A DNA stretch of 32,000 bases from an uncultured Actinomycetes bacterium. Its GTDB lineage: Bacteria > Actinomycetota > Actinomycetes > S36-B12 > CAIYMF01. Both the position numbers and the translations under genes were made by a program. The DNA lies in assembly GCA_963843975.1 (NCBI GenBank), contig CAWJMG010000003.1:930001-962000 (forward strand), written 5' to 3'. Below, piece after piece: positions 8,504 through 22,766 of the stretch. The notes beneath the pieces were generated by a model. That model searched no databases. It had not been told where the DNA came from and saw nothing but the letters and a program-made list of their open reading frames with translations. How positions within the stretch are numbered: position 1 is the first letter of the stretch; each line of letters opens with the position of its first letter.

Positions 8504-8507
8504 GCGG

Positions 8508-9305
8508 CTAGCTGCGGCGCAGCCAGCGACCGCCCTCGCCGATGGTGAGGAGCAGGAGCACTGTCAGCGTGACGCCGATGCCGATCCACGTGCCGAAGCC
8601 GTAGCTCGTCGTGGCGCCCGAGGAGGCGCCTCCCACGATCTGCCAGAGCGAGGCCACGAGGCTGAGGGCAGACAGGACGACGAGCGTCCACGCACCCCAG
8701 CGGCGGCCCTGCACGGTGGCGATGCCGACCACGAGGTAGAGGGCGCCCATGGCCGCGAGCACCAGCGCGCCGATGAGGACTCCGGCGAGGAGGGCCGAGG
8801 CCATGTCATCGAGCCCCTGGACCTGCGGGCCGGCCGCGGCGACCGCCTCGTCGATCTGGGCCTTGGCACCGAAGTAGCCGAGCAGCGCGACGCCCGCCAT
8901 CAGCGCGACGATCGACCCGGTGATGATCGAGATGACGCCGGCGGCCAGCACGTTGCCGGGCCGCACGTCGACGGGGGCTGCCGCCGCGCGGCTGTGCGCG
9001 CGGGCGGCCATGGAGGCGGTGGGGTCCCACACGGCGGGGGCGTCGTCGTACCCGGCGGCGAGGCCGCCGTGCACGGGGACGGCGCCGTAGCCCGGGGCCG
9101 CGAGCGGGCCGGTGGGGCGCACCTCGTCGACTGGGAGGCCGAACTGGTTCACCGCGGGCGCCGCGGGCGGGGGTGCGAACTGCTGCTGAGCGGGGGCTGC
9201 GGGTGCAGCCGGCGCCGTGGTCATGCCGAAACGGTCTGTCGTCGCCCCGGCCTGCGGCGTCGGCCGCGGACCCGTGGCGAAGAAGTCGTACTCCGGTGCT
9301 GCCAT
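8508..9305 (-). CDS. Hypothetical polytopic membrane protein with a Pro/Ala-rich N-terminus
   Basis: The ATG at 9305 (MAAPEYDFF...) is followed by about four predicted TM helices in the C-terminal half. I recognised no family. Confidence 0.5.
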   Translation of the reverse strand: MAAPEYDFFATGPRPTPQAGATTDRFGMTTAPAAPAAPAQQQFAPPPAAPAVNQFGLPVDEVRPTGPLAAPGYGAVPVHGGLAAGYDDAPAVWDPTASMAARAHSRAAAAPVDVRPGNVLAAGVISIITGSIVALMAGVALLGYFGAKAQIDEAVAAAGPQVQGLDDMASALLAGVLIGALVLAAMGALYLVVGIATVQGRRWGAWTLVVLSALSLVASLWQIVGGASSGATTSYGFGTWIGIGVTLTVLLLLTIGEGGRWLRRS

Positions 9306-11496: not shown

Positions 11497-12705
11497 TCAA
11501 GGTTCGGCGGGCACCGGCGGACGGCGGTCTCCGCCGGCCCAGCGGAGCGCGGCTCCGGCGACGAGCATGACCGCGATCGCGGCTGCGGCGTTCAGCGGCA
11601 GCCCGGCGTACTCGATCGTGCGGGTGGGGAAGCCGCCGAGGCCGGTCGCGGAGATGACGAGCGTCGAGATGCCGATCAGCAGCGTGGCGACGCACGCGAC
11701 CACGGCGGCGGCTCGCGGTGACGGACGACGGCTGCGCAGCGGCGCGTCCCACCAGACCAGGGGCGCGTGCTCGAGCGGCCAGAGCAGGCGGACGACCGCC
11801 CACACGCCCACGCCGTACGCCGCGATGAACACGACGCTGCCGAGCAGGTAGCCCCAGCCGGCGGGGACGGGGTAGCCGTCGGCGCCGATGGTCACCGGCC
11901 GGTCGAGGTGCAGCGCGTGCGCGAGGGTCGACACGGCGATGAGCACCGGGAGGTGCCAGAGGTAGAGCGTCATCGCGACGAGGTTGACGCCAGTGACGGG
12001 ACGCCAGATTCGAGGACGCTCGAGCAGACGCCGGAGGGGCGCGTCGAGCAGCGTGACCAGCGCAGCCAGCACGACCGAATGGATCGCGAGCACGATCGTC
12101 GGCGGGGCCATGTTGCTCACGGGCTCGCCGGGCATGCCGACCATCGAGACCGGGTACGGGCCGTAGCGGATGAGGACGGCGTTCGCGGTGAAGGCGAGCG
12201 CGACGGCCGCGACCAGCACCGGCCACGGGTAGGCGCCGAGCGAGCCGTGGGAGCGCAGTGCGCCGAGGTAGGCGGGCACGGCCCAGGCGAGGACGAAGTT
12301 GAGCAGCGCCACCGCCTCGGGGAGCCCGAGCGCGAACCGCGCGAGGTCGACGAGCCCGACCAGTCCGAGCAGCAGCAGGAGGCCGAGCACTCCCCCGAGC
12401 AGGCTCGTCCGACCGAACAGCGGCGCGAGCGCCGTCACGAGGAGGTACGCGCCGAGGAACCACAGCAGCTGCGTGGTCAGCATCATGAGCGGCTCGGCCG
12501 TCCTCGCCGGCGCGAGCAGCGTGACGACCGTGGCGATGACGGCCATGAGACCGAGGTAGATCCAGACCGGGCGCAGCAGACGCCGGCCACGACCCCAGAG
12601 CCACGACGCGTAGTCGCCGCCACGCGCGTGATGGCGTTCGTACGACAGGGCGTTCGCAGCGCCGCCCGCGAAGAAGAACAGCGGCATGATCTGCAGGATC
12701 CAGGT
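11497..12705 (-). pseudogene. Acyltransferase-3 family membrane protein, C-terminal 402 codons, separated from its N-terminus by the integrated element
   Basis: The reading frame is open upstream of the internal ATG at 12687 and reads ...EALTWILQIMPLFFFAGGAANALSY..., followed by about 9 TM helices. The missing first ~69 codons are at 22560-22766. Confidence 0.8.
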
Positions 12706-12713
12706 GAGCGCCT
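12702..12713. repeat. Left junction repeat (attL core) AGGTGAGCGCCT
   Basis: It matches 22556-22567 (AGGCGAGCGCCT) at 11 of 12 positions, and the 8-bp GAGCGCCT is identical. Confidence 0.75.
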
Positions 12714-12749
12714 CAATCCGTCCAGCGCAGTAGTCCCCCGCGTGTCGGC

Positions 12750-13034
12750 CTAGGCGCCGTCGGACTCCTCGGCGGCGGCCCTAGCGGTGGCACGCTCGGC
12801 GGCCCGCTCGCGAGCGCCCTCCCCGTAGTTGATTAGCGGCCGGAGAGCGGCCGACGCGGCGTCACGGAGTGTGTAGGCCGTCGCGAGGTCACCCCCTCCC
12901 ATCCCGTAGATGTAGCCGACAGTCCACCCCTCGGGGTCGGGCTCGAACGTGACGCCGAGGAGGTACTCCTCTCCGGCGGCCAGGAGGTCGGCTACGGCGG
13001 ACAGGGTCTCGGCGTCGTGCGGCTCGGCGGTCAT
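12750..13034 (-). CDS. Hypothetical acidic 94-aa protein (last gene of the leftward operon)
   Basis: Clean ATG ORF with high third-position GC. No recognisable motif. Confidence 0.55.
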   Translation of the reverse strand: MTAEPHDAETLSAVADLLAAGEEYLLGVTFEPDPEGWTVGYIYGMGGGDLATAYTLRDAASAALRPLINYGEGARERAAERATARAAAEESDGA

Positions 13035-13078
13035 GGCCGGAGTCTTGCACCCGGCTCCGACGACCGGGAAGACGCCGA

Positions 13079-13123
13079 GAGCCCCGCACCTCGACGCCGG
13101 GGGAAGCGTGAGGGGCGGGGCTC
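13079..13123 (-). terminator. Hairpin downstream of the 326-aa gene, sharing sequence with the hairpin at 21000-21035
   Basis: GAGCCCCGCaCCTC pairs with GAGGgGCGGGGCTC, with a loop of about 17 nt. On the minus strand it reads GGAGCCCCGCCCCTCAC. Confidence 0.4.
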
Positions 13124-13178
13124 CGGGGTGCTCGGCGGGGCGACGGGGGGGCGCACCCCACCGAGCGGTCTCGGGGGT

Positions 13179-14159
13179 CTAGATCACCTCGACCTCGCCG
13201 AGGTTGTCGAGGATCTCCGACCGGCTCCAGGCGTAGACGGTATCGGCGGCGGCGGCCTGGGCGGCGTCCTCGTCCACGGCCTCGACCTCGACGGAGTAGA
13301 CCGTCACCCGGTAGGACCGGGTCCGGCTCGCGGCGTCGCGGAAGTGGTCCTCCAGCCACCCCGGAAGGGCGGCGTAGGCCTTGCTCACGGCGTCCTCGTA
13401 CTCCGAGCACCACCCCTGACGCACGGCCTGCTCGCGGCACACCTCGCCGATAGCGGTCACGGCGGCCTGACCCTCCCGGTAGCGCGTCGAGGCGAGGCGG
13501 TCGAGGCGCTCGACCTCGGCGGCCTGACGCGCGCTCTCGTCCCTCGCGGCCTGGAGCGCGTCGAGGAGGACCACGAGGGCGGCCGAGGCGTGACCCTCGG
13601 CGCCGGTCAGGTCTCCGGAGCGCGCGGCGTCGACGGCCGCCGAGAGGATCCGCTCCGCCGCTCCGACGGTGTCGGCGTCGGCAGCCTCGACGGCGTCGAG
13701 AGCGGCGGCACGGGAGGACGCCGGGACGACCGGCGCGAGGGGCTCGGGCTCCTCGGCGACGGCCTCGACCGGCCACGCCTGGAGGACCTCCTCCGTCAGG
13801 TCGTGGGCGCCGTGCGCGCGGTGCTCGGCGTCCTCGTGGCCGGACAGGAGGGAGCACGAGTACCCGCGCGGGCTCGGCGCCTTGCACCGCGAGGCGTCGG
13901 GGATCTCGACGGCCTCCAGGCGCCGGGCGTAGCACGTCACGGCCTCGTCACGAGCCGTGAGCCGGACGCGGACGAGGGACTCGGAGGCCGTGGCCTCGGC
14001 GGACTCCAGGGCCTCCACGACGCCGACCTCCCCGACGGTCACGCCGGAGTAGGGCTCGATGAAGCGGACGCGCGCCTCGGGGACGAGGCGGGCGTCCCTG
14101 AGGTGCGGGAGAGCGGTCGAGGCGTCGGGCGCTGCGGGGGTGGAGAGAGTGGCGGTCAT
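13179..14159 (-). CDS. Hypothetical 326-aa protein
   Basis: The ATG at 14159 is preceded by TAAGGAGCCCTCTCACC, the motif copy at 14161-14173. The protein is Ala/Glu-rich and helical in the middle, with a Cys-containing C-terminal part (REQAVRQGWCSEYEDAV). I recognised no family. Confidence 0.6.
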   Translation of the reverse strand: MTATLSTPAAPDASTALPHLRDARLVPEARVRFIEPYSGVTVGEVGVVEALESAEATASESLVRVRLTARDEAVTCYARRLEAVEIPDASRCKAPSPRGYSCSLLSGHEDAEHRAHGAHDLTEEVLQAWPVEAVAEEPEPLAPVVPASSRAAALDAVEAADADTVGAAERILSAAVDAARSGDLTGAEGHASAALVVLLDALQAARDESARQAAEVERLDRLASTRYREGQAAVTAIGEVCREQAVRQGWCSEYEDAVSKAYAALPGWLEDHFRDAASRTRSYRVTVYSVEVEAVDEDAAQAAAADTVYAWSRSEILDNLGEVEVI

Positions 14160-14160
14160 G

Positions 14161-14173
14161 GTGAGAGGGCTCC
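14161..14173 (-). repeat. Start-associated motif copy GGAGCCCTCTCAC
   Basis: One nt upstream of the ATG at 14159. The TAA stop of the upstream gene abuts it. Confidence 0.7.
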
Positions 14174-14467
14174 TTAGCGGTTGGGGTTGGCGGTGCGGTT
14201 GCGGGCGTCGGCGTCGGACCACGAGGCCCGGCGCCGTAGGAGGACCGTCACGACGACGGCCCGGCGGCCGTCGGCGCTCTCGGCGACGACGACGGAGAGA
14301 GGGCCTCGGGTGAAGCGGCGGCGGCCCTCGTGCGGCTCGGACACGTCCGGGCGCCGGAGCGCCTCGGCGATCTCCTCGGGCTCCACGTCACGCTCGGCCA
14401 TGACGCGCCGGGCGTGGTGAGTGAGGGCGACGCCGTCGGGATAGCGGTCGGCCGCGTGCGTCGTCAC
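14174..14467 (-). CDS. DUF4258-like small protein (putative toxin-like fold)
   Basis: A 97-aa protein, ...VALTHHARRVMAERDVEPEEIAEAL..P...HEGRRRFTRGPLSVVV......VVVTVLL. This matches my recollection of the DUF4258 pattern (H-A-x-x-R-M-x-E-R ... VV ... TV). GTG at 14467 with GGAGG 7 nt upstream and a GTGA overlap. Confidence 0.5.
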   Translation of the reverse strand: MTTHAADRYPDGVALTHHARRVMAERDVEPEEIAEALRRPDVSEPHEGRRRFTRGPLSVVVAESADGRRAVVVTVLLRRRASWSDADARNRTANPNR

Positions 14468-14742
14468 GAGGTGGCCTCCGCCGTCACGGCCTCGGCGGCC
14501 TGGACGACGCGCCGGGCCTGACGCCGGGTCCTCCAGGACCCCACGAGCCGGACGGCCAGGAGGACGAGGACGACGCACGCGCGCCACGTCCACCGGAGCG
14601 CGCGCCACGTCAGGACGACGGCCCACCGGAGGAGGTGCCACGCGGCCACGGCCAGGAGGACCGGGAGCGCGAGGAGGACCCACGAGAGCGCGCCGACGAC
14701 GGGCGAGGACGAGGGAGCCGGGGCGCGGCGGTCGTCGCTCAT
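14464..14742 (-). CDS. Hypothetical small membrane protein (2 TM, Trp/Arg-rich)
   Basis: A 92-aa protein from the ATG at 14742, which overlaps the upstream stop as ATGA. Two hydrophobic helices. Confidence 0.5.
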   Translation of the reverse strand: MSDDRRAPAPSSSPVVGALSWVLLALPVLLAVAAWHLLRWAVVLTWRALRWTWRACVVLVLLAVRLVGSWRTRRQARRVVQAAEAVTAEATS

Positions 14743-14960
14743 CGGCCCTCGCCTCCGGCCACGATGCGGAGGCTCGCGGAGTGAGCGTCGGACACGGCCA
14801 CGGCGGCGGGCTCGCGGTCCAGGAGGTCGAGGGCGGCTCGGCGCCACGCGGCGGCCTCGCGGCGTGCGTCGTCCAGGCGGGCGGCGGCCAGGAGGACGCC
14901 GAGGAGGAGGCCGACGGTCGCGGCCACGAGGGCCAGGGCGGCGGCGGAGAGAGCGAACAT
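14739..14960 (-). CDS. Hypothetical small membrane protein (1 TM)
   Basis: A 73-aa protein, MFALSAAALALVAATVGLLLGVLLAAA.... The ATG at 14960 directly follows GGAGCCCTCTCA. Confidence 0.5.
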   Translation of the reverse strand: MFALSAAALALVAATVGLLLGVLLAAARLDDARREAAAWRRAALDLLDREPAAVAVSDAHSASLRIVAGGEGR

Positions 14961-14972
14961 TGAGAGGGCTCC
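14961..14972 (-). repeat. Start-associated motif copy GGAGCCCTCTCA
   Basis: Immediately 5' of the ATG at 14960. Confidence 0.7.
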
Positions 14973-14979
14973 TAGCGAT

Positions 14980-14991
14980 GTGAGAGGGCTC
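14980..14991 (-). repeat. Tandem second motif copy GAGCCCTCTCAC, followed by ATC rather than ATG
   Basis: The minus strand reads GAGCCCTCTCAC-ATC-GCTA-GGAGCCCTCTCA-ATG. Confidence 0.6.
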
Positions 14992-15060
14992 GGAAGTCCC
15001 GGCCGGGGAAGCGCGACGGGGGAGGCACGCTCCCCCGGCCGGGGGTCTAGCGGGGGCGGG

Positions 15061-15660
15061 TCAGGAGGCCTTGACGCACGACGCGGCCGGGGTCGAGAGG
15101 ACCGGGCCGGAGGTGTCGGTGGAGACCTGGACGGCATACCCGGTGAGGGCGAGGGTCGCGCCGTCGGCGAGAGCCGAGCCGGGGCGGCCGATCGTCACCT
15201 GCACCTGCTTCGGCGTCCCCACCTGGAGCGGGACGCCGCACGCCGAGCCGGGGGTGGAGGTCGAGGAGGTGGACTCGACCGACAGGCTCCAGCCGGTCTG
15301 CGGGCTCACGGGCGCGGCGACTCCGGCCACGGTTCCGTCGGCGCCGGTCGCCACGAGGGAGGCGGTGTAGGTGCAGGACTCGCCCGGGTAGATCCCGGAT
15401 CCGCCGGTCGAGGAGAGCACGCCGGAGTCCACGGTCAGGCTCGGGCACCCGGCCGGGCCGGAGGCGGGGCCGACGGTCGTCCACGAGGCGGAGAAGGATC
15501 CGCCCTTGACGGTGCCGGAGAAGTTGGCTCGGGCGAGGTACGCCGCGAGGGCGACTCCGGCGGCGGCCACGACGGCCACGACGGCCACGACGGGGACGCC
15601 GAGGACGCGGCGGCCGAGGATGCCGCGACGGTGGGTCGCGGAGGGGTAGGCGTGGGACAT
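15061..15660 (-). CDS. Predicted secreted or membrane-anchored Ser/Thr/Gly-rich beta-type protein with 4 Cys
   Basis: A 199-aa protein with a basic N-terminus, the hydrophobic anchor VLGVPVVAVVAVVAAAGVALAAYLA, then a low-complexity, beta-rich sequence. The ATG at 15660 directly follows GGAGCCGTCTCAC. Confidence 0.6.
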   Translation of the reverse strand: MSHAYPSATHRRGILGRRVLGVPVVAVVAVVAAAGVALAAYLARANFSGTVKGGSFSASWTTVGPASGPAGCPSLTVDSGVLSSTGGSGIYPGESCTYTASLVATGADGTVAGVAAPVSPQTGWSLSVESTSSTSTPGSACGVPLQVGTPKQVQVTIGRPGSALADGATLALTGYAVQVSTDTSGPVLSTPAASCVKAS

Positions 15661-15673
15661 GTGAGACGGCTCC
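15661..15673 (-). repeat. Start-associated motif variant GGAGCCGTCTCAC
   Basis: Immediately 5' of the ATG at 15660. Confidence 0.65.
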
Positions 15674-15901
15674 TAAACGGTCGAGGGCCTCGCGGCTCTC
15701 CGGCGCCACGGTGGCGCCGTGCTCGGAAAGGTAGCACCCGGCCTCTGACAGGCGCGCCAGGGCGTCCACAGGCGCGGCGTGACCGTTACGGCGGCCGGGT
15801 GCTCTCGACGGCCTCACGGGGCGCTCACGAGCCGCGAAAGGCCTACGTCCGGCGGCGTGTGACAGGGACGCCGACGGCTCCGGGGTGGGACCCTCGGCGG
15901 C
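15674..15901. promoter_or_regulatory. Divergent intergenic control region between the leftward operon and the XRE regulator
   Basis: About 240 bp between divergent starts. It contains a 19-bp palindrome CGGCGCCAC-G-GTGGCGCCG (15701-15719) and the direct 9-mers ACAGGCGCG at 15748 and 15768, 20 bp apart. Confidence 0.45.
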
Positions 15902-16186
15902 ATGGTGACCGCAGCAGAAACCGAGGGCCTAGACGCGCTCGTGTCGGACAACGTCCGAGCCGCACGGGCTCGGCTCCGGATCCGTCAGGCGGACCTAGCG
16001 GAGCGCCTCGGGTGGAGCCGGGCGAGCGTTGCGAGCCTGGAGGACCGGCGCCGACGGGTGACCCTCGCGGACGCGGTCGGCTTGTGCTCGGCGCTCGGGC
16101 TCACCTTGACCGAACTCCTCGACGGCCGGGAGGGCGCCGAGGCCCGGCGGGCTCTCGGCCTGGAGGCGTCCGGACGCAACGTCTAG
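15902..16186 (+). CDS. XRE/Cro-CI-type helix-turn-helix transcriptional regulator
   Basis: A 94-aa protein. LRIRQADLAERLGWSRASVASLEDRRRRVTLADAVGLCSALGLTLTELL is a typical HTH_3 signature. It is the only plus-strand gene in the element. Confidence 0.75.
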   Translation: MVTAAETEGLDALVSDNVRAARARLRIRQADLAERLGWSRASVASLEDRRRRVTLADAVGLCSALGLTLTELLDGREGAEARRALGLEASGRNV

Positions 16187-16190
16187 ACGG

Positions 16191-16243
16191 GTCAGGCCCC
16201 GTGCCGGGAGCCCTCTCACAGGATCGGCGGCACGGGGCCTGAC
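16191..16243. terminator. Perfect 16-bp stem hairpin between convergent genes, with the start-associated motif in its 21-nt loop
   Basis: GTCAGGCCCCGTGCCG (16191-16206) pairs with CGGCACGGGGCCTGAC (16228-16243). The loop is GGAGCCCTCTCACAGGATCGG. Confidence 0.65.
16207..16219 (+). repeat. Motif copy GGAGCCCTCTCAC on the plus strand, not followed by a start codon
   Basis: It sits in the loop of the 16191-16243 hairpin. Confidence 0.7.
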
Positions 16244-16253
16244 GGGTCGAACT

Positions 16254-16487
16254 CTAGTCGCGGTGCGGCTCGTGCTCTGCCAGGGCGTCGAGGGCCTCGG
16301 CCAGGGCTCGGAGGTCCTCGCGGATCTCCGGCTCGGGCTCGACGGCCACGGGCTCCTCGGCCACGGGCGCCGAGCCCCACCCGGAGTGGTCGGCCAGGGT
16401 TGCCGTGAACGCGGAGACCTCCTCCGGCGCACCCGGTTCGGGGGCGAACCGGCGCACCTCGCGCCTCACGAAGTGGTTCCCGCTCAC
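16254..16487 (-). CDS. Hypothetical acidic 77-aa protein
   Basis: GTG at 16487 with GGAGG upstream and a GTGA overlap with the preceding gene. Confidence 0.45.
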   Translation of the reverse strand: MSGNHFVRREVRRFAPEPGAPEEVSAFTATLADHSGWGSAPVAEEPVAVEPEPEIREDLRALAEALDALAEHEPHRD

Positions 16488-16840
16488 GCGGCCACCTCCA
16501 CGGGCTCGACGGAGACGACGCCGACAGGGAGCACCTCGGCCCGGTGTGACGCCTCGCGGATCCACGCGGCGGCCACGGAGGCCCGGAGGTCGGAGGCGGC
16601 CTCGGCGGCGCCGAGCGCGAGCGACGGCGGGAGCGCGCGGTTACTCGGGATCACGAGCAACGGAACGCACCGCGAGGCGATGAGACGACGCGCGGCCTCG
16701 TGGTCTCCGTCCACCTCGCCGGACTCCAGGAGGACGACGAGGGCTCTCCCGTACAGGCGCCGGGTCGAGGTCCGGTAGGCGGTGGCGCCGGGCGTCACTT
16801 GGTGCAGGGCCGTCGCGGCGCCGTACCGGGTGGCGCTCAC
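16484..16840 (-). CDS. Hypothetical 118-aa protein
   Basis: The GTG at 16840 overlaps the upstream stop as GTGA. Sequence ...LYGRALVVLLESGEVDGDHEAARRLIASRCVPLLVIP...; no family assigned. Confidence 0.45.
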   Translation of the reverse strand: MSATRYGAATALHQVTPGATAYRTSTRRLYGRALVVLLESGEVDGDHEAARRLIASRCVPLLVIPSNRALPPSLALGAAEAASDLRASVAAAWIREASHRAEVLPVGVVSVEPVEVAA

Positions 16841-17646
16841 GAGGCGGCGCCGGTCCACTCGACGCGCGGGGCCGTCGCGGCCTTGTGAGCGGCGGCGGCC
16901 TTGTCGGCGGCGCGGTAGTGCTCGACCGCCGAGCCCGCGAGGGTGTCGAGGTCGGCCGGGAGAGGGAGCCGGTCGGCGAGGCGCTCGGTGCGGACCATCT
17001 GGGCGCTGAAGTCGTGCGGTCGCCGGGTGAGGCGGTCGCCGAGCATCTGCGGCACGAGGGCCTCGGCGTACCCGGCGGCACGGAGCGCGACGCCGTCGAG
17101 GGAGGACAGGCTCCGGAAGGCGTCGCGCGCGGCCTCCACGGAGGCCTCGGCCTCGGCGATGCGGCCTCGGGCCTCCGTCGAGGTCCTGACGGCCTCGACG
17201 TGCAGGGCCTCGCGGGTCGCCGGGTCGAGGCAGGCGACTCCGGCGGCGCGGTCCACGTCGGCGGCGGTGTGCCGGGCCTCGGCCACGGCGGCGTGGATCC
17301 GCGCCCACAGGCCGAGGAGCCGGGCGCCGAGCGCGTCGGCGTCGGGGGCCTTCACCTTCACCGGGCCGGAGGTCGTCGCCTCGGCGGCGGCCCTCCACGC
17401 GCCGAGCGCGGCGGCGTGGTCGGTCAGGGCGTCGAGTGCCTCGGAGCGCGTGTCCTCGACGCGGTCCGAGACCGCCGCGTGAGCCGCGAGCGCGTCGGCG
17501 ACCGGCGCCGAGACGGCGGCGAGGTGGGCGAGGAGCCCGGGGTCAGTCTTCGGCTCGGCGGTGGCGGTGAGGATGCCCGGTCCGCCGCTCCACGTCTGCG
17601 GGACGAGGAGGGAGTGGCCGGAAGCGGAGGTGTAGAGGTTCGTCAT
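16837..17646 (-). CDS. Hypothetical 269-aa Ala-rich helical protein
   Basis: The ATG at 17646 is preceded by the degenerate motif GGAGGGCGCTCACG (17647-17660). No family recognised. Confidence 0.55.
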   Translation of the reverse strand: MTNLYTSASGHSLLVPQTWSGGPGILTATAEPKTDPGLLAHLAAVSAPVADALAAHAAVSDRVEDTRSEALDALTDHAAALGAWRAAAEATTSGPVKVKAPDADALGARLLGLWARIHAAVAEARHTAADVDRAAGVACLDPATREALHVEAVRTSTEARGRIAEAEASVEAARDAFRSLSSLDGVALRAAGYAEALVPQMLGDRLTRRPHDFSAQMVRTERLADRLPLPADLDTLAGSAVEHYRAADKAAAAHKAATAPRVEWTGAAS

Positions 17647-18067
17647 CGTGAGCGCCCTCCTAGGGCGCGAGGCCTCGGCCGCCGGGGCGGAGTCGAGGGT
17701 CCGGCCGTCGCGCCAATCGCGACGTTCACCGGGGGTGCGGACGGGGGTCCGCGAGTGTCGGGGGATCGGCGGATTGCCTACTCTCCCAACGGTTTACGGG
17801 GTTCGTGCCAATCGGCCGGCCAGGGAGGCCAGGGCCGAAAGTCCTTGTGCCGCAAGGACTCTGAGCATTCGCCGAAAGTCCGTGTGCGCGTTGCGGTCTC
17901 GCGGTTCGGGGCTCGCGAGGCGGTCGATGGGCTCGGGTCGTCTCGCATTGTGGGATGACTGCGTTAACTAAAGGCCGTCTGACCTGCGGAAACGTCTGTA
18001 AGGCGATTTTGCGGGCGGGGTGGGGTGAGTGGACCGGGACGGGGGTCTCGGGCCTCTACGGGCCGTT

Positions 18068-18277
18068 CTAGGCCGTTCTAGAGGGTGCCTCCTGACGCCG
18101 TCGGAAGGCTCTCGCCTCCTTCGGCGTCACGGTGCCGCCGACGGTCGTCGGCTCCTCGACGCCGACCCGTGAGGCCTCGGCCAGGAGCCGGAGCGCCGCG
18201 AGGGCCTCGACCCGGACGGCCTCGGGGGTCTCGACGCCGAGCGGAGGCCACGGGTCGCGCGTCACCTCGGCCGCCAT
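18068..18277 (-). CDS. Hypothetical 69-aa protein
   Basis: ATG at 18277, overlapping the upstream ORF end by 16 nt. The stop lies inside a tandem GGCCGTTCTA x2 repeat. Confidence 0.4.
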   Translation of the reverse strand: MAAEVTRDPWPPLGVETPEAVRVEALAALRLLAEASRVGVEEPTTVGGTVTPKEARAFRRRQEAPSRTA

Positions 18278-18732
18278 GACAGGTGGTCGGGCTCGACGCA
18301 ACGGGGCTCGGCGCACACGACGCGGATCGGGCCGACGCGCTCGGACGACAGGGCCTCGATCACGAGGCGCCGCACCTCGGCCGCGCGGCTCGGCGACGGC
18401 CACGCCGAGCACCCCGTGGCGGGGTCGTGCTCGGCGAGGCCGACGACGGCGGAGAGGACCTCGGCCGGGTCGCCGGTCGCGAGGGCTCGGCCGAGGGCGT
18501 AGCCGGTCACCTTCGGTCGGCTCGGCTCGGAGGCCTGGACCCGCCGGGTCCGCTCGCGCTGACAGGCGAGGCAGCACCGCGCCCGGCCGCCGGGCTTGCT
18601 CCGGTTGCGGACGAGGAGCGAGAGCCGCGACTCACCGCACGAGGCGCACGCCCGCGAGGCCTCGACGCGCTCGGGCTCGGGGACCTGACGGAGGAGGACG
18701 ACGGCGAGCCGGTCGAGGGTCGTCGTGGTCAT
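18262..18732 (-). CDS. Zinc-ribbon protein with an HNH-associated-like C-terminus
   Basis: A 156-aa protein with CASCG...CCLAC (four Cys) and a C-terminal VVCAEPRCVEPDHLSW. The latter resembles the C-x-x-x-C-V-N-P-x-H-L motif of phage HNH/AP2-type DNA-binding proteins. ATGA overlap at 18729-18732. Confidence 0.45.
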   Translation of the reverse strand: MTTTTLDRLAVVLLRQVPEPERVEASRACASCGESRLSLLVRNRSKPGGRARCCLACQRERTRRVQASEPSRPKVTGYALGRALATGDPAEVLSAVVGLAEHDPATGCSAWPSPSRAAEVRRLVIEALSSERVGPIRVVCAEPRCVEPDHLSWRPR

Positions 18733-19148
18733 CGGCGGCACCCGCCGTGGAGAGGCTGGAGGACGCCGCGCCGAGCCGCGACGGGGCGACCGCACGAGGT
18801 GCAGGGCTCGACCTCGCCGAGGCGAGCGCGGGCGGCGGCCTCCTCGGTCATCCGAGCCATGAGGGCGGCGTAGCGGAGCGGCGCGGCCTCCTCGGCCCGG
18901 AGGTACTCCAGGTCGGGGGTTGCACGCCTCGCACGCTCGGCGGCCACGAGGACGGCCACGCCGGACTCCTCGGCCACGTCGAGGCCGTCGGTCTGCGCGC
19001 GGTCGAGGGCATCGACGGTCAGCCACCTACGGCCCCGGGTCCGCTCGGCGTCGGCACGGAGCGCCGGGACGCACGGCCAACCGGCCAGGGACTCCAGGCC
19101 CTTGCTGTCGTTCACGGTGAGGCCGGGGTCACGGGTGGAGGCGGTCAC
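18729..19148 (-). CDS. Hypothetical 139-aa protein with a C-terminal CxxC...C motif
   Basis: The GTG at 19148 overlaps the upstream stop as GTGA. The C-terminus reads EVEPCTSCGRPVAARRGVLQPLHGGC. Confidence 0.45.
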   Translation of the reverse strand: MTASTRDPGLTVNDSKGLESLAGWPCVPALRADAERTRGRRWLTVDALDRAQTDGLDVAEESGVAVLVAAERARRATPDLEYLRAEEAAPLRYAALMARMTEEAAARARLGEVEPCTSCGRPVAARRGVLQPLHGGCRR

Positions 19149-19990
19149 GGCGCGGGCTCCTCGGCGGGCTGGGGACGGGCGGCGCGCTCGCGGCGGAGGG
19201 CGTCGATACGAGAGAGGTCGGCGGCACGGGTGGCGGCCTCCTCGACGGTCAGGGGCTCGGGCCTCGGCACGGTGAACACGACGCCGACGGCGCCGCGACG
19301 GGAGAGCCGGGCGGCCTCCTCCAGGAGCCGGAAGAAGTCGCCTTGCGAGAGGCGCGCACCCTTCCGGACGCCGGAGCGGAACGCGGCGGTGAGGTACTGC
19401 CTCCAGGCCTCGGCGCGGGTGTAGGTGCCGTGGGGGAGGTGGGCGATGAACGTGCGCGCGTGGTCCTCGGCCAGGGTGCGAGCCGCGAGCGTCGAGGCAC
19501 GAGGGCCGAGGGCCGGGGTCGAGCGCCACGCGGTCAGGAGCCCGGCGGTCGAGACCGGGTCACCCTGGGAACGGAGGAGGAGCGACAGGGCCTCGTCGGC
19601 GGCGGTCGCGGACCACGAGCCCCACCCCCGCGACCGCGCCTCGGCGACGGCCCGCGTGCGGGCGAGCGCCGATGCGTACTCGACCGGCTCGGGGTCCGGC
19701 TCGGGGAGCGCGAGGACGAGCGACCGCGCGAGGGTCTCGGCGGCCGGAGCGCCGTGGTCGTCGCGGGGCTGGAGAGTCAGGACGCCGGAGGCATCGGGGG
19801 CGGCCAGGAACCGGCGTAGGTCGGCGTCCTCGGCCACGCGCCACTCGGCGGCGTGCAGGAGGACGGCCAGGACGCGGCCGACGGCCAGGGGCGACAGGAC
19901 CTCGGACGGAGGAGCCATAGGGCCGTCGAGGTGGGCGACGCCGAGCGCGAGGCGGCGGCCGTCGAGGAGGGCGGGGAGGTTGGCGAACAT
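19145..19990 (-). CDS. Hypothetical 281-aa protein (first gene after the AT-rich island; a replication or DNA-binding role is only a guess)
   Basis: ATG at 19990 (MFANLPALLDG...). The longer track ORF to 20188 has an implausible N-terminus. No family recognised. Confidence 0.5.
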   Translation of the reverse strand: MFANLPALLDGRRLALGVAHLDGPMAPPSEVLSPLAVGRVLAVLLHAAEWRVAEDADLRRFLAAPDASGVLTLQPRDDHGAPAAETLARSLVLALPEPDPEPVEYASALARTRAVAEARSRGWGSWSATAADEALSLLLRSQGDPVSTAGLLTAWRSTPALGPRASTLAARTLAEDHARTFIAHLPHGTYTRAEAWRQYLTAAFRSGVRKGARLSQGDFFRLLEEAARLSRRGAVGVVFTVPRPEPLTVEEAATRAADLSRIDALRRERAARPQPAEEPAP

Positions 19991-20600
19991 GGGGGCGGGT
20001 CTCGCTTTCGGTTGGCGGGTGGAGGTCGAGCGGATCGAGCGGCGGCGGGTCGAGGGGTGGGCGACGGCTCCGAGTAGGACCCGCCTCGGAGCCGTCGCGC
20101 CGGTACGGCCTGAGACCCGCCAAGGCAACGGCCGTACGTCTGTCCCCGCACCGCTCGACGCGGTCGAGCCGGAGGCGCTCGCGCCCACCCCTGCCTCCTG
20201 AAGTCAGGAGCGGGCGTTACCTAGGCGAGCGTCGAGCGGTGCGGGGGTCTAGGGGCTCGGCGCCGGGGCGGCCGAGCGGGTGTCTCACTCCGCAGATAGG
20301 CGAACTCGTGCGCGATCCGCAGCGCGCGGCGCCGGAGCGCCGAGCGTCGGCCGAGGAGGACAGGGCAGGAGGGCGCCAGGAGCCCCCGACCTGCTCACGG
20401 TTCGCCGGGTGAATCTCGGTGGCCGGGCGCCGGGAGCGGCCTGGAGGTGGTCGAGGGCTTGTGCGCTTGTGAACCCTCAGACTCGTACGCACCCTGCCGG
20501 GCTATGCCGCTTCGGAAGGGGACGGGAGCGCGGAGGGGTCCCTCCCCACCCCTCCCGGCGGAAACGCGCGGGGGTTTCGGCGGTTTAGGGCTCGCGAGGC

Positions 20601-20771
20601 GTGATAGTGACGGATTAGCGAGATAGTGACAGATAGGACGAAGTGCCGTTAGTACCTTCTATTTCCTATTCCTGTTAGAGGCTCTCTAAAAACAAACCTA
20701 GAGAGGGAATAGTAAATAGCGGTAGATAGCCTCACTTCGTCCTATCTGTCACTTAGGGCTGAATCTGTCAC
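20601..20771. promoter_or_regulatory. AT-rich island with a 21-bp perfect inverted repeat and four GTGAC(A/G)GAT 9-mers (candidate origin or operator cluster)
   Basis: AGTGACAGATAGGACGAAGTG (20625-20645) is the reverse complement of CACTTCGTCCTATCTGTCACT (20733-20753). GATAGTGAC occurs at 20603 and 20622, and ATCTGTCAC at 20744 and 20763. The 87-bp spacer is strongly AT-rich in a GC-rich context. Confidence 0.55.
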
Positions 20772-20999
20772 CACCCCTCGACCGGCCTCCGCCCGGCGGC
20801 ACCGCCGACGGCCTCCAGGCGCCACCGTCGGCGCTCCCGCGCCACCCTCGGCGGCCTCCTGACGCCGTATCAGGGCTCCAGGAGCCCCGCTCCCGGCCGA
20901 ACGGCCGCACCCCCGTATGTCCGGACCCCCGGCCATTCCGTGCCGCCTACGGGCCTCCTGGGGCCTCGGGGCCTGGAGCCGTGCTCACGCCGGACGCCG

Positions 21000-21035
21000 A
21001 GGAGCCCCGCTCCTCGTGAGAGGGGCGGGGCTCCT
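21000..21035 (-). terminator. Stem-loop 15 nt downstream of the integrase stop
   Basis: AGGAGCCCCGC(t)CCTC pairs with GAGG(g)GCGGGGCTCCT around a 4-nt loop. The minus-strand RNA would be AGGAGCCCCGCCCCUC-UCAC-GAGGAGCGGGGCUCCU. There is no U-tract. Confidence 0.5.
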
Positions 21036-21049
21036 GGTGCTCGGGCCGG

Positions 21050-22504
21050 TCAGGCGGCGGCCTCGTGCTCGACGGCCGCCGGGTCCAGGCGCCATGCGTC
21101 GAGGATCCGGCCGAGGTCGAAGGTCCGGCGGCCTCGGACGCCGGGGCCGAGCGCCAGGGCGCCGACGGTCCGGGCGAGCGCGTCGCGGCGGTCCTCCAGC
21201 GTCCCGGCCTCCCACACGTCCCCGTACGTCCGGCCGGTCTCCCGGAGGACGGTCATCGCGAGCGCCGGGAGAGCCGCGAGGCGCTCGGCCTCGTCCTCGG
21301 CGGCGTCGAGAGCCGCGAGGGCCTCGGCGCGCTCGGAGCGCGGCGCCACGGCCAGGGCGGCGCGTGCCGCGTCCACGCGGTCCTCGGCCTGGGCGAGGCG
21401 CTCGGAGGCCTCGTCGGAGAGCCGCACGGAGACGGTCTCGGGCAGGCTCCCCCACCCGGCGAGCCACGCGGCCGAGACGGCGGCCTCGACGGCCTCGGCG
21501 GAGGCAGCGACGGGACGCGCGCAACGCTGACCGGCGCCGTCCGACGGGCAGCGGTAGAAGGACGGCGCGTCGTGCTTGCTGGAGACCGCGAGGCGCGAGC
21601 CGCACGAGTGGCAGACGAGGACGCCGGAGAGCAGACGGGCCGGGCGGCGGTTGCTCGTGCTCGTGCGGCGCTCGGGCGCCGAGAGGATCCGGCGCACCTC
21701 GCGGAGCGTCGAGGCGTCGAGGACCTCGGCCGCGCCGTCTCCCTTGACGAGAGTGTTTCGGAGGCTCGTCCGGCTCCAGGCGGCGGCACGACGCGGGGCG
21801 TGGCCGTGGTCGTTGAGGTAGCGCACGACGCGCACGACGGGCTCTCCAGCGACGACGCGGGCGGCGGCGAGGCGGAGCGTCGCGGCCTCGGCCTCGTCCA
21901 CCTCCAGGACCTTTCCGGCGCCGTCGGGGTTGGGGACGGCGCGGAGGCCGTAGGCAATGACTCCGCCGTTCCAACGGCCCTCAGCGCGGAGGCGCTCGTG
22001 GGAGGCGATGTTGCGGGCTTTCGTCGCCTCGCGCTCGGCCTCGGCCATGCCTCCGAGGACGCCGACCATGAGCGGCCACGCCGAGACGTCGCCGGAGTCG
22101 AGATTGTCCGAGTAGGACAGGAACCGGACCGGCTCGGAGACCGCCGTGCCGTCGGCGTCAATGCCCTTCACCGTGTCGAGGAACCGGGCGAGTCCGGCGG
22201 TGCCGCCACGGCTCACGCGGTCCAGGCGCCACGCGAGGAGATGCGTCGCGCGACCCTCGCGGGCGTCGGCGAGCCACGCGAGGAGGCCGGGCCGGTTGCG
22301 GAGGGCGCCGGACTCTCCGTCGTCGGTCCAGATGGAGACCACCTCCAGGCCGTGACGCTCGGCGAGGGCGCGGAGGTCGGCCTCTTGTGCCTGGAGGCCG
22401 GTCGAGTCGGCCCCGGAGGCCTTGCTCTTGCGGAGGTACAGGGAGGCGGTGGCGGTCATGGTCGAGGAGGGGGCCAGCGTGCGTGAGGTTGCTCGGGTGG
22501 TCAT
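21050..22504 (-). CDS. Large serine recombinase (integrase)
   Basis: A 484-aa protein. The N-terminal resolvase-type catalytic domain reads ASLYLRKSK...DDGESGALRNRPGL...LLAWRLDRVSRG. The recombinase domain contains GRWNGGVIAYG. The zinc ribbon reads VCHSCGSRL...YRCP...QRC, followed by an Ala/Glu-rich coiled-coil tail. The ATG at 22504 directly follows GGAGCCCTCTCAC. Confidence 0.9.
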   Translation of the reverse strand: MTTRATSRTLAPSSTMTATASLYLRKSKASGADSTGLQAQEADLRALAERHGLEVVSIWTDDGESGALRNRPGLLAWLADAREGRATHLLAWRLDRVSRGGTAGLARFLDTVKGIDADGTAVSEPVRFLSYSDNLDSGDVSAWPLMVGVLGGMAEAEREATKARNIASHERLRAEGRWNGGVIAYGLRAVPNPDGAGKVLEVDEAEAATLRLAAARVVAGEPVVRVVRYLNDHGHAPRRAAAWSRTSLRNTLVKGDGAAEVLDASTLREVRRILSAPERRTSTSNRRPARLLSGVLVCHSCGSRLAVSSKHDAPSFYRCPSDGAGQRCARPVAASAEAVEAAVSAAWLAGWGSLPETVSVRLSDEASERLAQAEDRVDAARAALAVAPRSERAEALAALDAAEDEAERLAALPALAMTVLRETGRTYGDVWEAGTLEDRRDALARTVGALALGPGVRGRRTFDLGRILDAWRLDPAAVEHEAAA

Positions 22505-22517
22505 GTGAGAGGGCTCC
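22505..22517 (-). repeat. Start-associated motif copy GGAGCCCTCTCAC
   Basis: Immediately 5' of the integrase ATG. Confidence 0.7.
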
Positions 22518-22535
22518 GTTTCGGCGAGCGGTGAA

Positions 22536-22766
22536 CTACTGCTCTCCGAAGATAGAGGCGAGCGCCTGCGTCCACGGGAACGCCGCGAGCAGGTTGCCGA
22601 GCACGGGTACGCCGTCCGGCCAGGCCACCACGGCCATGATCACGTGGCCGACCACGACGACGAGCAGCGCCGCCGCGCGAGCGCCGTCCACGACGCGGTC
22701 ACGGTCGGGCGGCGTCTCGGCCGCAGCCCGAGCCGTCGGCACCGCCGCGAACACCCGGATGCTCAC
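22536..22766 (-). pseudogene. Acyltransferase-3 N-terminal fragment (69 native codons plus 7 element-derived codons and a stop)
   Basis: GTG at 22766, reading ...DGARAAALLVVVVGHVIMAVVAWPDGVPVLGNLLAAFPWTQAL, then ASIFGEQ-stop. The native part ends at 22560. Confidence 0.75.
22556..22567. repeat. Right junction repeat (attR core) AGGCGAGCGCCT
   Basis: Matches 12702-12713 at 11 of 12 positions. Confidence 0.75.

Follow-up and report, generated by a model that had tools for sequence, protein, structure and literature searches.

A 9,854-bp serine-integrase element with a winged-helix gene and a low-GC palindrome, probably a hitch-hiker on phage

A complete integrative mobile element of 9,854 bp lies at 12706-22567 of the window, the 32-kb stretch of uncultured actinomycete DNA analysed here, and was placed in a host acyltransferase gene by its large serine integrase. 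It encodes no NTPase, and we recognised in it no enzyme of replication and no protein for virions, packaging, lysis or conjugation. The element is probably a phage hitch-hiker, because its P14 gene and palindrome tie it to a family in which two other members carry a lone phage capsid gene. Our best model, to which we give a probability of about 45%, is that the element depends on a helper; P14 and the palindrome would be initiator and origin, or a recognition site.

Results

The limits of the element were set by synteny with four related Longivirga-like genomes (L004-L007), which is lost at window 12713/22556. In all four, the Acyl_transf_3 gene is uninterrupted (471-501 aa) and attB is empty. 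An 8-bp core is present at both junctions of the element.

11497-12687, minus strand: C-terminal piece of the Acyl_transf_3 gene of the host, which the element interrupts (PF01757, E = 2e-12, profile positions 48-318)
12706-12713: left junction core GAGCGCCT, the crossover region, common to attB and the right junction; synteny with L004-L007 resumes at 12713
20989-21046: GC-rich hairpin directly after the int stop codon, a likely terminator (inverted-repeat scan)
21050-22504, minus strand: large serine integrase, 484 aa (Resolvase 2.5e-20, Zn_ribbon_recom 2e-7, Recombinase 3e-3)
22536-22766, minus strand: N-terminal piece of the interrupted Acyl_transf_3 gene (PF01757 profile positions 4-35)
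22560-22567: right junction core GAGCGCCT, the identical 8-mer

The attP site was rebuilt from the left and right ends and has inverted arms, ACTACTGC...GCAGTAGT. The integrase matches phrog_95 (2e-69, PHROGs) and has ~35% identity to Streptomyces phage integrases; no directionality factor for it was recognised in the element. A preliminary description of this DNA had placed the element at 12750-22504, which holds as the span of the genes but not as the limits of the element, given the synteny break and the 8-bp core. It had also proposed a search for homologous islands at the same attB in related genomes; in L004-L007 this attB is empty and the gene intact.

Frame analysis by GC3 gives 15 genes, namely int, 13 genes of 69-326 aa and one XRE gene on the plus strand, the same count and size range as described before. 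Every ORF is open, with GC3 of 0.81-0.96, and a second gene call, made independently on a public contig of identical sequence, agrees for 7 of the 7 genes covered (484, 281, 139, 156, 69, 269 and 118 aa). The genes and signals between the left junction and P14 are as follows.

12750-13034, minus strand: P1, 94 aa; sole homologue a hypothetical protein of a Streptomyces linear plasmid
13179-14159, minus strand: P2, 326 aa; no homologue in searches that included Pfam, PHROGs, NCBIfam and PADLOC
14174-14467, minus strand: P3, 97 aa, DUF4258 domain (PF14076, E = 4e-8)
14464-14742, minus strand: P4, 92 aa, predicted membrane protein (hydrophobic stretches by eye; coding signal; no family match)
14739-14960, minus strand: P5, about 73 aa, predicted to cross the membrane once (by eye)
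15061-15660, minus strand: P6, 199 aa, N-terminal signal/anchor and Ser/Thr/Gly-rich beta-type body (by eye)
15902-16186, plus strand: XRE-family HTH regulator (HTH_31/HTH_3, about 1e-8)
16186-16248: hairpin between XRE and P8, which converge; arms of 21 nt with 90% complementarity; likely bidirectional terminator (inverted-repeat scan)
16254-16487, minus strand: P8, about 77 aa, acidic (coding signal)
16484-16840, minus strand: P9, 118 aa, no family match; also in the independent gene call
16837-17646, minus strand: P10, 269 aa, elongated and all-helical (AF2 single-sequence model, pLDDT 61, long helices)
17647-18067: non-coding stretch of lower GC that lies upstream of the P10 operon and contains the short direct repeats GCCGAAAGTCC (twice) and GGCCGTTCTA (twice)
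18068-18277, minus strand: P11, 69 aa, no family match; also in the independent gene call
18262-18732, minus strand: P12, 156 aa, CxxC...CxxC zinc-ribbon-like N-terminus (motif reading)
18729-19148, minus strand: P13, 139 aa, N-terminal ~70 aa kept in two other loci of the family (L009 and L011)

The XRE gene is divergent from the operon that begins with P6 and ends with P1, and is the single divergent regulator of the preliminary description. This membrane-protein operon is not kept in the sibling elements described below. P1 and P2 share one frame, with a stop codon and 144 nt between them. A scan for T-tract terminators found none.

The recognisable genes are 3 of the 15, coding for the large serine integrase, the XRE regulator and the DUF4258 protein; Pfam, PHROGs, NCBIfam and PADLOC gave no families beyond Resolvase/Recombinase/Zn_ribbon_recom, XRE HTH and DUF4258. 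The 13 proteins other than int and the XRE regulator, joined end to end as one query for two of the searches among the phage, plasmid and PDB sets, had no match in 50,697 phage records and nothing but one trivial match in 72,556 plasmids (tblastn), and zero matches to PDB sequences. The Walker-A motif GxxxxGK[ST] is absent from all six frames of the element, and terminase, TraB/FtsK and helicases are therefore excluded. An HUH motif was not found in the element either. Its DNA has no similarity to phage cos or pac regions, IMG/VR viral contigs include no relative of the element, and it is a singleton across all databases searched. It contains no capsid homologue and no pseudogene traces of a capsid or other sibling gene.

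These searches agree with the earlier reading that virion, terminase, lysis, conjugation and relaxase genes are missing; the capsid or terminase genes and the TraB/Rep/relaxase set that had been listed as counter-evidence were not detected by profile. At 9,854 bp, and with no particle or DNA-moving genes, the element is indeed too small for an autonomous tailed phage. Furthermore, the Rep and Tra genes that define actinomycete integrative conjugative elements (AICEs) are missing, with no such family match and no P-loop.

The features common to the family to which the element belongs lie between P13 and int.

19145-19990, minus strand: P14, 281 aa, family-defining; N-terminal alpha/beta domain, helical middle and C-terminal winged helix (model)
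19991-21049: 1.06-kb non-coding region from int to P14; no coding signal, no called gene
20603-20775: low-GC imperfect palindrome, candidate origin or recognition site; 48-nt arms at 20625-20672 and 20706-20753
20607 (+), 20626 (+), 20746 (-), 20765 (-): GTGAC(A/G)G sites flanking the palindrome, 2+2 inverted, 19-bp spacing

The palindrome is the strongest dyad symmetry of the whole window, and its ssDNA fold has z = -11.06 (z = -7.1 in the sibling L012). The GC content is 49% at 20590-20790, compared with 74% for the window, and four GTGAC(A/G)G sites occur in about 170 bp, where 0.27 are expected. The AT-rich, iteron-like island noticed previously is thus real. A GTGACAG motif also occurs at 15859, where it precedes the XRE gene by 37 bp. 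There is no DnaA box.

P14 has no NTPase or nuclease motif and no Pfam match, RepA_N included. The structure check proposed for all the proteins was run for P14 and P10. The P14 model (pLDDT 78, with the winged helix at the C-terminus) gave no significant match (best Foldseek E = 0.08-0.3; no PDB match), and the weak fold matches are mostly primase/helicase-associated and winged-helix or HTH proteins. The winged helix resembles actinophage HTH proteins (Pas1, probability 0.94; Aminay HTH protein, probability 0.92). The P10 model matched only generic helical bundles. Capsid, portal and terminase were rejected as identities of P10, since its predicted fold differs.

An exhaustive HMMER search found four relatives of P14 among 1.84e9 representative proteins, and a profile search added one more, giving a family of six proteins. 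Flanking DNA is readable for four of the five relatives; three are in small actinobacterial integrative elements and one is on a 2.4-kb fragment. Of the three sibling elements, L011 has a serine integrase and lies on a 7.6-kb contig, L012 is an island with a tyrosine integrase adjoining tRNA-Pro, and L013, of approximately 10 kb, has a serine integrase and sits in dprA; the last two are fully bounded at about 9-10 kb. In the conserved module, the P14-like winged-helix gene comes after a long, imperfect palindrome of low GC. The palindrome is upstream of every P14-like gene with readable DNA; it is the top dyad symmetry in four of five loci, and is tied for first in L013. Its sequence diverges across the five loci, and the dyad symmetry is kept. 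In the window's subfamily P13 follows P14, and the P13-like N-terminal ~70 aa are found directly downstream of the P14-like genes of L009 and L011 (45-50% identity, E = 1e-12). In the siblings a small Zn-ribbon ORF precedes the palindrome. The P14-palindrome elements look like an undescribed, tiny family.

Two siblings carry a phage capsid gene. L012 at 8291-9163 and L013 at 5179-6147 match phrog_283, major head protein (1.6e-26 and 1e-31, PHROGs), and the L013 protein aligns across 99% of its length with Arthrobacter siphophage major capsid proteins at 51% identity. No other virion genes were found in L012 and L013, which fall in a more distant P14 subfamily (27-30% identity). A lone capsid gene in a small integrative element is a satellite-like arrangement. 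Because these elements of P14 relatives carry it, the proposal that the island resembles phage-inducible chromosomal islands (PICIs) and other satellites is partly, though indirectly, supported for the family; for the window's element, which lacks the capsid homologue, it remains a candidate reading. That proposal had rested on absence of evidence alone.

Discussion

What would move such an element? We suggest that it cannot move or copy alone, and that it would be a helper-dependent 'hitcher'. Int would excise it, and P14 would then bind the GTGAC(A/G)G repeats around the AT-rich centre of the palindrome. P14 might act as an initiator-only replication protein that recruits the host or helper replisome, by analogy with the RepA_N protein of Vibrio PLE; the word 'initiator' is a guess from anatomy, because the P14 model has no significant structural match. 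Alternatively, the P14-site pair may mark the element DNA for the packaging machinery of the helper. The helper would most likely be a temperate or lytic actinophage, because two siblings keep a single major-capsid homologue, as SaPIbov5 does. The P6-P1 operon would be variable cargo under XRE control, consisting of a putative secreted protein, two predicted membrane proteins, the DUF4258 protein and two orphans. The palindrome itself might just as well serve as an operator, as an oriT or clt site, or to terminate transcription.

Movement by conjugation is a less probable but live alternative. The palindrome and 7-mers of an integrative mobilisable element would then be a clt- or oriT-like site for a foreign TraB-type translocase or relaxase from a co-resident plasmid or AICE, with P14 as an accessory DNA binder. 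For dsDNA conjugation of the TraB/clt type in actinomycetes, a translocase and a short cis repeat locus suffice, and the element has clustered repeats, small membrane proteins that by eye recall Spd proteins, and no phage homology. AICEs are in the same size class, and some have serine recombinases and protein-coding gene targets (PMC3218068). However, no Tra, Rep, Spd or Nudix family match was obtained, and the siblings hold a phage capsid gene and no conjugation genes. Furthermore, a P14-like gene accompanies the palindrome in every case, which a site for a foreign TraB would not require.

Less likely again is a regulatory switch, in which P14 represses or activates through the palindrome as its operator, or the two form a module for anti-termination or sensing, with no episomal replication, and the element is inherited vertically or via generalised transduction. 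The resemblance of the winged helix to actinophage HTH proteins fits a switch, as do the operator-like 2+2 inverted sites, the same heptamer upstream of the XRE gene, and the lack of both a DnaA box and a replication enzyme. However, a low-GC palindrome of 130-170 bp far exceeds operator size, its symmetry, kept despite the diverged sequence, better fits an unwinding or cruciform element, and P14 has two domains beyond the winged helix.

A decayed remnant, the alternative named in the preliminary description, is improbable and not obvious from the DNA. On this reading, internal deletion in a larger prophage or AICE would have removed the structural or transfer genes and left an immobile element; the phage-like integrase and the singleton status are compatible with this, and the split between P1 and P2 could signal decay. 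However, the element has two intact junctions and a full-length int, its attP could be rebuilt, all 15 ORFs code well, and no pseudogene traces are seen. Independent relatives with other integrases and targets are of similar size, share the core order and likewise have no structural module. Finally, it is very improbable that the element is a very small virus without a tail (membrane-bound or pleomorphic) in integrated form, or is transferred in vesicles, with P6, P5 and P4 as particle proteins: this would suit 15 genes in about 10 kb, all orphan proteins, and an operon with a signal-peptide protein and two small membrane proteins (by eye), but any kind of packaging or morphogenesis ATPase is absent, that operon is not conserved in the siblings, and IMG/VR has no relatives.

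The helper-dependent element that we favour can be compared with known systems. PLE has an initiator-only RepA, without helicase or primase activity, which acts on semi-palindromic repeats of a long non-coding region containing the origin and needs helper machinery, and it integrates by a large serine recombinase (PMC7145576). The window's element has the same kind of integrase, P14 and the palindrome recall, by analogy, the initiator and non-coding origin, and both have nearly no homology to other satellites. However, PLEs are about 18 kb, are found in Vibrio only and have 15 family markers (PMC10085698); none of these was found in the element, and P14 is without a RepA_N match.

With PICIs and SaPIs the element shares its size class, an integrase at one end, an HTH regulator beside a divergent operon, and an AT-rich, repeat-flanked candidate origin. 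By contrast, its integrase is a serine recombinase where theirs is a tyrosine recombinase, and primase-replicase, capsid-morphogenesis gene and small terminase, three of the five core components in PMC10085698, were undetected. The siblings L012 and L013 are like cos-type SaPIbov5, whose Ccm, which remodels helper capsids, is a capsid-protein homologue of the same kind (PMC8569155).

P4-like satellites, too, measure about 10 kb, and they have about 11 genes. They rely on the helper for every virion function, lack a terminase and are packaged via a cis site. They differ in host phylum, and the window's element has a serine recombinase and no alpha primase-helicase, psu-delta-sid, epsilon or AlpA homologue (PHROGs). 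The element is classified as neither PICI, cfPICI, P4-like nor PLE, because it has no capsid homologue, primase-replicase or small terminase; of the components of known satellite families, it has the integrase and possibly the regulator. The Streptomyces satellites MulchRoom and MiniFlayer are likewise actinobacterial and lack key replication genes, but they are 15-17 kb and carry terS, terL, portal, major capsid, scaffold and adaptor (PMC10690885), none of which the element has, and there is no sequence similarity.

AICEs such as pSAM2 (10.9 kb) are similar in actinobacterial phylum, size of about 10 kb and site-specific integration, and also in small membrane proteins (PMC2440964, PMC3218068). 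The element differs in having no FtsK/SpoIIIE Tra, no RepSA, RepAM or Prim-Pol Rep, and no P-loop anywhere.

Some minor likenesses to the siblings were also seen. P12 recalls, by eye, the small Zn-ribbon ORFs before the sibling palindromes, with alignment z-scores that are not significant. The order P10, P9, P8 is shared with L011, where similarity is weak: P10 has z = 3.6 against a syntenic 327-aa protein, and P8 is weakly similar to a syntenic 41-aa ORF (z = 4.5), both ending in PHRD.

Integration site and gene layout

The ORFs flanking the element are two pieces of one gene, as seen from their Pfam matches to Acyl_transf_3:

22536-22766, N-terminal piece, Pfam profile positions 4-35
11497-12687, C-terminal piece, Pfam profile positions 48-318

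In clusters at 90% identity, the adjoining dienelactone-hydrolase protein is grouped with proteins of Longivirga aurantiaca and of 'Ca. Nanopelagicales' MAGs. Four such genomes (Longivirga aurantiaca and three related MAGs) have the acyltransferase gene unbroken, at 471-501 aa; the host of the element is itself Longivirga-like, an actinobacterium but no Streptomyces. Since the gene is split here and intact in the relatives, the host has probably lost this acyltransferase function. Synteny with the related genomes in blastn ends at 22556 and restarts at 12713, and two copies of the 8-mer GAGCGCCT mark the junctions, at 12706-12713 and 22560-22567, with a single copy in attB. The synteny breaks and the shared core thus define an element of 9,854 bp with both junctions intact. 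When the element ends are joined, the resulting attP has inverted arms, ACTACTGC…GCAGTAGT, around the core, which is the expected look of a large serine integrase site. The integrase (int) contains Resolvase (2.5e-20), Recombinase (3e-3) and Zn_ribbon_recom (2e-7) domains and matches phrog_95 (2e-69). Both hallmarks of a large-serine-integrase element are therefore present, the integrase domains on the one hand and, on the other, discrete attL and attR that have a short core in common, an attB that is empty in relatives, and an inverted-arm attP. The element is discrete and intact, and was integrated by a site-specific serine integrase. The split gene, which encodes a membrane acyltransferase, sits in a his/trp neighbourhood.

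The GC content across the window is 70-78%, and genes were called from third-position GC (GC3) for this reason. This gave 15 genes at 12750-22504:

21050-22504, minus strand, int, serine integrase, 484 aa
19990-18068, minus strand, operon P14-P13-P12-P11
17646-16254, minus strand, operon P10-P9-P8
15902-16186, plus strand, XRE, HTH regulator, the sole plus-strand gene
15660-12750, minus strand, operon P6-P5-P4-P3-P2-P1

An identical public contig, called independently, has the same calls for all seven element genes that it covers. The count of 15 ORFs in the preliminary description, and its size range of 69-326 aa for the ORFs other than int and XRE, agree with the present calls. P2 and P1 (12750-14222) share one reading frame, interrupted by a single stop codon at 13179-13181 and by 144 nt that contain no start codon; they may be separate genes, a pair joined by read-through, or one gene that was split recently.

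Searches for recognisable functions

What do these genes encode? Pfam, PHROGs, NCBIfam and PADLOC gave assignments to just three proteins, namely the serine integrase, XRE (an HTH protein) and P3 (DUF4258), with the Pfam search run again at E ≤ 10. The 13 unassigned proteins (P1-P6 and P8-P14), concatenated, had no tblastn match in 50,697 phage records. The search of 72,556 plasmids gave one match, between P1 and a hypothetical protein of a Streptomyces linear plasmid, and no PDB chain matches the unassigned proteins. This P1 homologue is the only one found (45% identity; NZ_CP108519.1, 8959-9297), and its gene lies near the end of the 90-kb plasmid, among integrase genes and DUF6233 genes. 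Each of the eight proteins looked up (int, XRE, P1, P2, P6, P10, P12 and P14) stands alone in its 90%-identity cluster in a collection of about 15 billion proteins. Word-index homologue searches with P14 and P2 returned the queries alone, and 8-mer and degenerate-pattern scans of GTDB genomes, JGI metagenomes and IMG/VR returned nothing. Nucleotide searches found 81 nt of int in phages and nothing in plasmids; blastn of the non-coding region against phages was also empty.

The absence of recognisable virion, terminase, lysis, conjugation or relaxase genes, first noted by eye, is upheld by Pfam, PHROGs, NCBIfam, PADLOC, tblastn, PDB and motif searches, and sensitive profiles detected no capsid or terminase gene and no TraB, Rep or relaxase. 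Furthermore, the Walker-A motif is absent from all six frames of the element, as is the HUH motif. Without a Walker A there can be no large terminase, FtsK/TraB translocase or coupling protein, and no Zot-type ATPase, SF3 or DnaB helicase, whatever the sensitivity of the profiles. The element has no NTPase and no known transfer, packaging or replication enzyme.

Some weaker candidates were set aside. The sole Rfam match, a sub-threshold sRNA at 13128-13197, was dismissed, and a by-eye reading of the P12 C-terminus (…VVCAEPRCVEPDHL) as a degenerate HNH_3 was dropped, as it is unsupported by Pfam at E ≤ 10. Scans found no sigma-70 consensus promoters or T-tract terminators, which is uninformative at 74% GC, and no DnaA box.

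The P14 family and its palindrome

For P14, the 281-aa protein encoded nearest to int, an exhaustive HMMER search yielded four relatives at 30-45% identity among 1.84 billion representative proteins, and a profile search added a fifth. The loci are as follows:

L011, 7.6-kb contig: serine integrase, 73-aa Zn-ribbon ORF, gap, P14-like, P13-like, three ORFs, reversed membrane-protein genes
L013, ~10-kb serine-integrase element inside dprA
L012 (Isoptericola sp. b490, GCA_030586475.1), ~9-kb island that adjoins tRNA-Pro and carries an HTH_17 gene beside its tyrosine integrase
L009 and L010, 2.4-kb fragments: P14-like and P13-like genes
A 4.7-kb contig of ERR15459707 known from its gene sizes, 279/110/–/264/129, which echo P14/P13/–/P10/P9

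P14 is the only protein common to all these loci. P13 is shared with L009 and L011 (E ~1e-12), and P10, P9 and P8 have weak similarity to the syntenic L011 genes (z = 3.6, 2.8 and 4.5, respectively).

In every locus with readable DNA (five of five), the P14-like gene has a long, low-GC imperfect palindrome upstream of it:

Window, 20625-20753, 48-nt arms
L009, 467-592, 44-nt arms
L011, 1759-1925, 71-nt arms
L012, 9682-9845, 77-nt arms
L013, 6562-6689, 29-nt arms

The palindrome regions have 49-67% GC, compared with 68-74% for their loci. In an ungapped dyad-symmetry scan the palindrome took first rank in four loci and shared it in the fifth, L013, and that of the window is the top dyad symmetry over all 32 kb. 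Folding as ssDNA gave z = -11.1 for the window palindrome and z = -7.1 for that of L012. The sequence of the arms varies by locus while their complementarity is kept, and (A/T)AGTGAC(A/G)G is common to the outer ends. In the window, GTGAC(A/G)G sites occur at 20607 and 20626 (direct) and at 20746 and 20765 (inverted), with 0.27 expected by chance; the pairs, each with 19 bp spacing, stand on both sides of the AT-rich centre. No coding signal was found in the 1.06 kb from int to P14. The "iteron-like island" of the preliminary description is real, and holds the palindrome and four repeat sites.

A P14-like protein, with a long low-GC imperfect palindrome before it, in an integrase-bounded island of ~8-10 kb is a family signature that is both solid and new, and the element of the window bears it. 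The family has six known members, and its biology is entirely inferred. The winged-helix protein and its palindrome are the conserved module of the family, and the cargo is variable.

Three copies of GTGACAG lie in the palindrome region and one more at 15859-15865, 37 bp before the start codon of XRE, and the two regions may share an operator. Of the five copies that the 32 kb contain, four are within the element, with an overall count not above chance. A perfect 18-nt inverted repeat (CCCCGCACCGCTCGACGC; 20144-20161 and 20229-20246, 67-nt spacer) is in the GC-rich part of the non-coding leader that separates the palindrome from P14. Another lower-GC non-coding gap, at 17647-18067 upstream of the P10 operon, has no sequence kinship to the palindrome; it has short direct repeats, GCCGAAAGTCC twice near 17834/17871 and GGCCGTTCTA twice at 18060-18080, as well as a small hairpin (17838-17862).

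Capsid genes in sibling elements

In L012 and L013, a major capsid gene is located directly upstream of a Zn-ribbon ORF, the palindrome and the P14-like gene. The capsid genes match phrog_283 (1.6e-26 and 1e-31, respectively), and the L013 capsid shares 51% identity, across 99% of its length, with the capsids of ~43-kb Arthrobacter siphophages, with matches in 414 phage records. Portal, terminase, protease, tail and lysis genes are all absent from both elements. The integrase types differ and the proteins are only 34-46% identical, yet the order of capsid, Zn-ribbon ORF, palindrome and P14-like gene is kept, so these elements are functional and not random wreckage. The element of the window lacks a capsid gene of this kind: in the window, tblastn found no capsid remnant, and hhalign of the capsid pair with P2 and P10 gave a probability of < 0.2%. 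P10 was modelled (AF2, single sequence) as an elongated helical bundle at low confidence, matching generic helical bundles only. SaPIbov5 remodels the capsids of its helper by means of Ccm, a lone capsid-protein homologue on a small island (PMC8569155).

Structure of P14

An AF2 model of P14 from a six-sequence alignment (pLDDT 78) has a beta-beta-alpha-beta-beta-beta-alpha N-terminal domain, a helical middle, and then a C-terminal winged helix and a long helix. Foldseek against PDB and BFVD gave nothing significant (best E = 0.08-0.3). The weak matches come mostly from two groups, primase/helicase-associated proteins (AsfvPrimPol, D5-type, COG3378 and SF3 helicase proteins) and winged-helix/HTH proteins, including two actinophage proteins at probability > 0.9. 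We take these matches as no more than a hint. We found no catalytic motif in P14 worth defending. The DAD motif at residues 55-57 was rejected as AEP primase motif I, since D55 alone of its residues is invariant and an N-terminal domain of this size is too small. P14 is also unlikely to be a serine-integrase directionality factor, since the L012 island has a P14-like gene beside a tyrosine integrase and HTH_17 (Xis).

Comparison with known element classes

The element was compared with known families by criteria drawn from PMC10085698 and PMC3218068. As in PICIs, an integrase is present, here of the serine type. PICI integrases are usually of the tyrosine type. In PICIs, a regulation module (an alpA, merR or stl homologue) is beside int. 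A possible counterpart in the window is the XRE HTH regulator, which lies 5 kb from int. The primase-replicase has no Pfam, PHROGs or NCBIfam match and no Walker A in six frames, the capsid-morphogenesis gene was not found in the element by PHROGs or hhalign, which a novel analogue could escape, and the small terminase was not found by profiles or phage tblastn. Of the PICI components, the integrase is shared, XRE is a possible regulator, and primase-replicase, capsid morphogenesis and terS are missing. No member of the cfPICI set (major capsid, portal, protease, head-tail connectors, terminases, HNH) is in the element, and the P4-like set (psu-delta-sid, alpA, epsilon, alpha primase-helicase) has no PHROGs or Pfam match and no P-loop. 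For AICEs, Pfam, NCBIfam and the Walker-A scan found no FtsK/SpoIIIE-domain Tra, and no Rep (RepSA, RepAM or Prim-Pol type) was found by NCBIfam, by Pfam RepAM/DUF3631, Prim-Pol and Rep_1/2/3 or by the HUH scan; the preliminary description had also seen neither Tra nor Rep. Profiles, nucleotide search and tblastn found no capsid, portal, terminase, tail or lysis gene of a tailed prophage, intact or cryptic. An inovirus-like prophage is not indicated either, there being no Zot/pI-type ATPase or rolling-circle Rep (no Walker A, HUH or Pfam match).

The closest working analogue of the mechanism proposed below is the Vibrio PLE, which has a large serine recombinase, and an initiator-only RepA acting on semi-palindromic repeats that lie in a long non-coding region, and which replicates only with its helper phage present (PMC7145576). 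Pfam found neither the RepA_N initiator of PLEs nor any other PLE marker in the proteins of the element. The element works most like an initiator-only satellite and is a member of none of PICI, cfPICI, P4-like, PLE or AICE. We rate it as a small integrative hitcher or satellite, of a proposed, undescribed P14-palindrome family. The Rhodococcus 'atypical replicative element' (PMC12169178) is a 75-80-kb region and is unrelated.

Proposed mechanism and significance

Most probably this mobile element is intact but non-autonomous and comes from a family not yet described, and we infer that it depends on a helper. We suggest that P14 would bind the repeats beside the AT-rich palindrome centre and recruit a foreign replisome, with which replication would start; alternatively, bound P14 would mark the element DNA for the packaging machinery of the helper. 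We give this model, with P14 and its repeats as initiator or packaging mark of a helper-dependent element, a probability of about 0.45. That the helper is a phage is a tentative proposal, held at somewhat less than even odds. More speculative, and on the whole doubtful, is the full scheme of a new NTPase-free actinobacterial satellite family, in which the novel winged-helix protein P14 and the AT-rich palindrome of 130-170 bp would together serve helper-dependent replication, packaging or both, the L012/L013 branch would remodel the capsids of its helper with a major-capsid homologue stolen from a phage, and the window/L011 branch would use other proteins, e.g. the helical P10.

The palindrome could instead be a clt- or oriT-like site for conjugative mobilisation, a less likely reading. 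Less likely again, P14 and its operator may be a purely regulatory switch. A decayed remnant is improbable, as the ends and genes are intact and independent relatives are similarly small. A self-sufficient tiny non-tailed virus, in an element without any NTPase, is very improbable indeed.

Actinobacteria are still almost uncharted territory for phage satellites and other hitchers. Satellite detection tools rest on known marker genes, and these are wholly absent from the present element. More than 99.9% of SatelliteFinder PICIs are in Proteobacteria and Firmicutes (PMC10085698). If helper-dependent replicon or packaging signal is what P14 and the palindrome are, they would be a marker for a new satellite family and a minimal design without ATPase, primase or terminase. 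The capsid-bearing siblings would be tractable, since candidate helpers, siphophages of the Arthrobacter type, are suggested by the capsid gene. Even when each protein of an element is a singleton in 15 billion sequences, an exhaustive profile search together with a conserved non-coding structure can give the element a place.

Additional features of the sibling loci

A small CxxC…CxxC Arg-rich Zn-ribbon ORF directly precedes the palindrome in all four siblings, at L009 301-468, L011 1473-1694, L012 9335-9577 and L013 6237-6458. The comparable motif in the window is at the N-terminus of P12 (18262-18732), where it is fused, a by-eye likeness without statistical support. The L013 element splits dprA, with DNA_processg_A Pfam fragments at 2135-2587 and 12582-13355 flanking the insert, so that a competence gene is hit and a host gene disrupted, as with the element of the window. 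At L013 14704-17567, just after a comM-like Mg-chelatase gene, there is another large serine recombinase, of 510 aa and different from the first, along with small ORFs; this region, 1.5 kb past the first element, may be another element in tandem. Beside the P14-like gene of L013, a gene at 8193-8672 matches DUF4145 (Pfam 4e-5) and phrog_1305, 'DNA binding protein' (7e-11). DUF4145 occurs in restriction and abortive-infection contexts, and this gene may be defence cargo.
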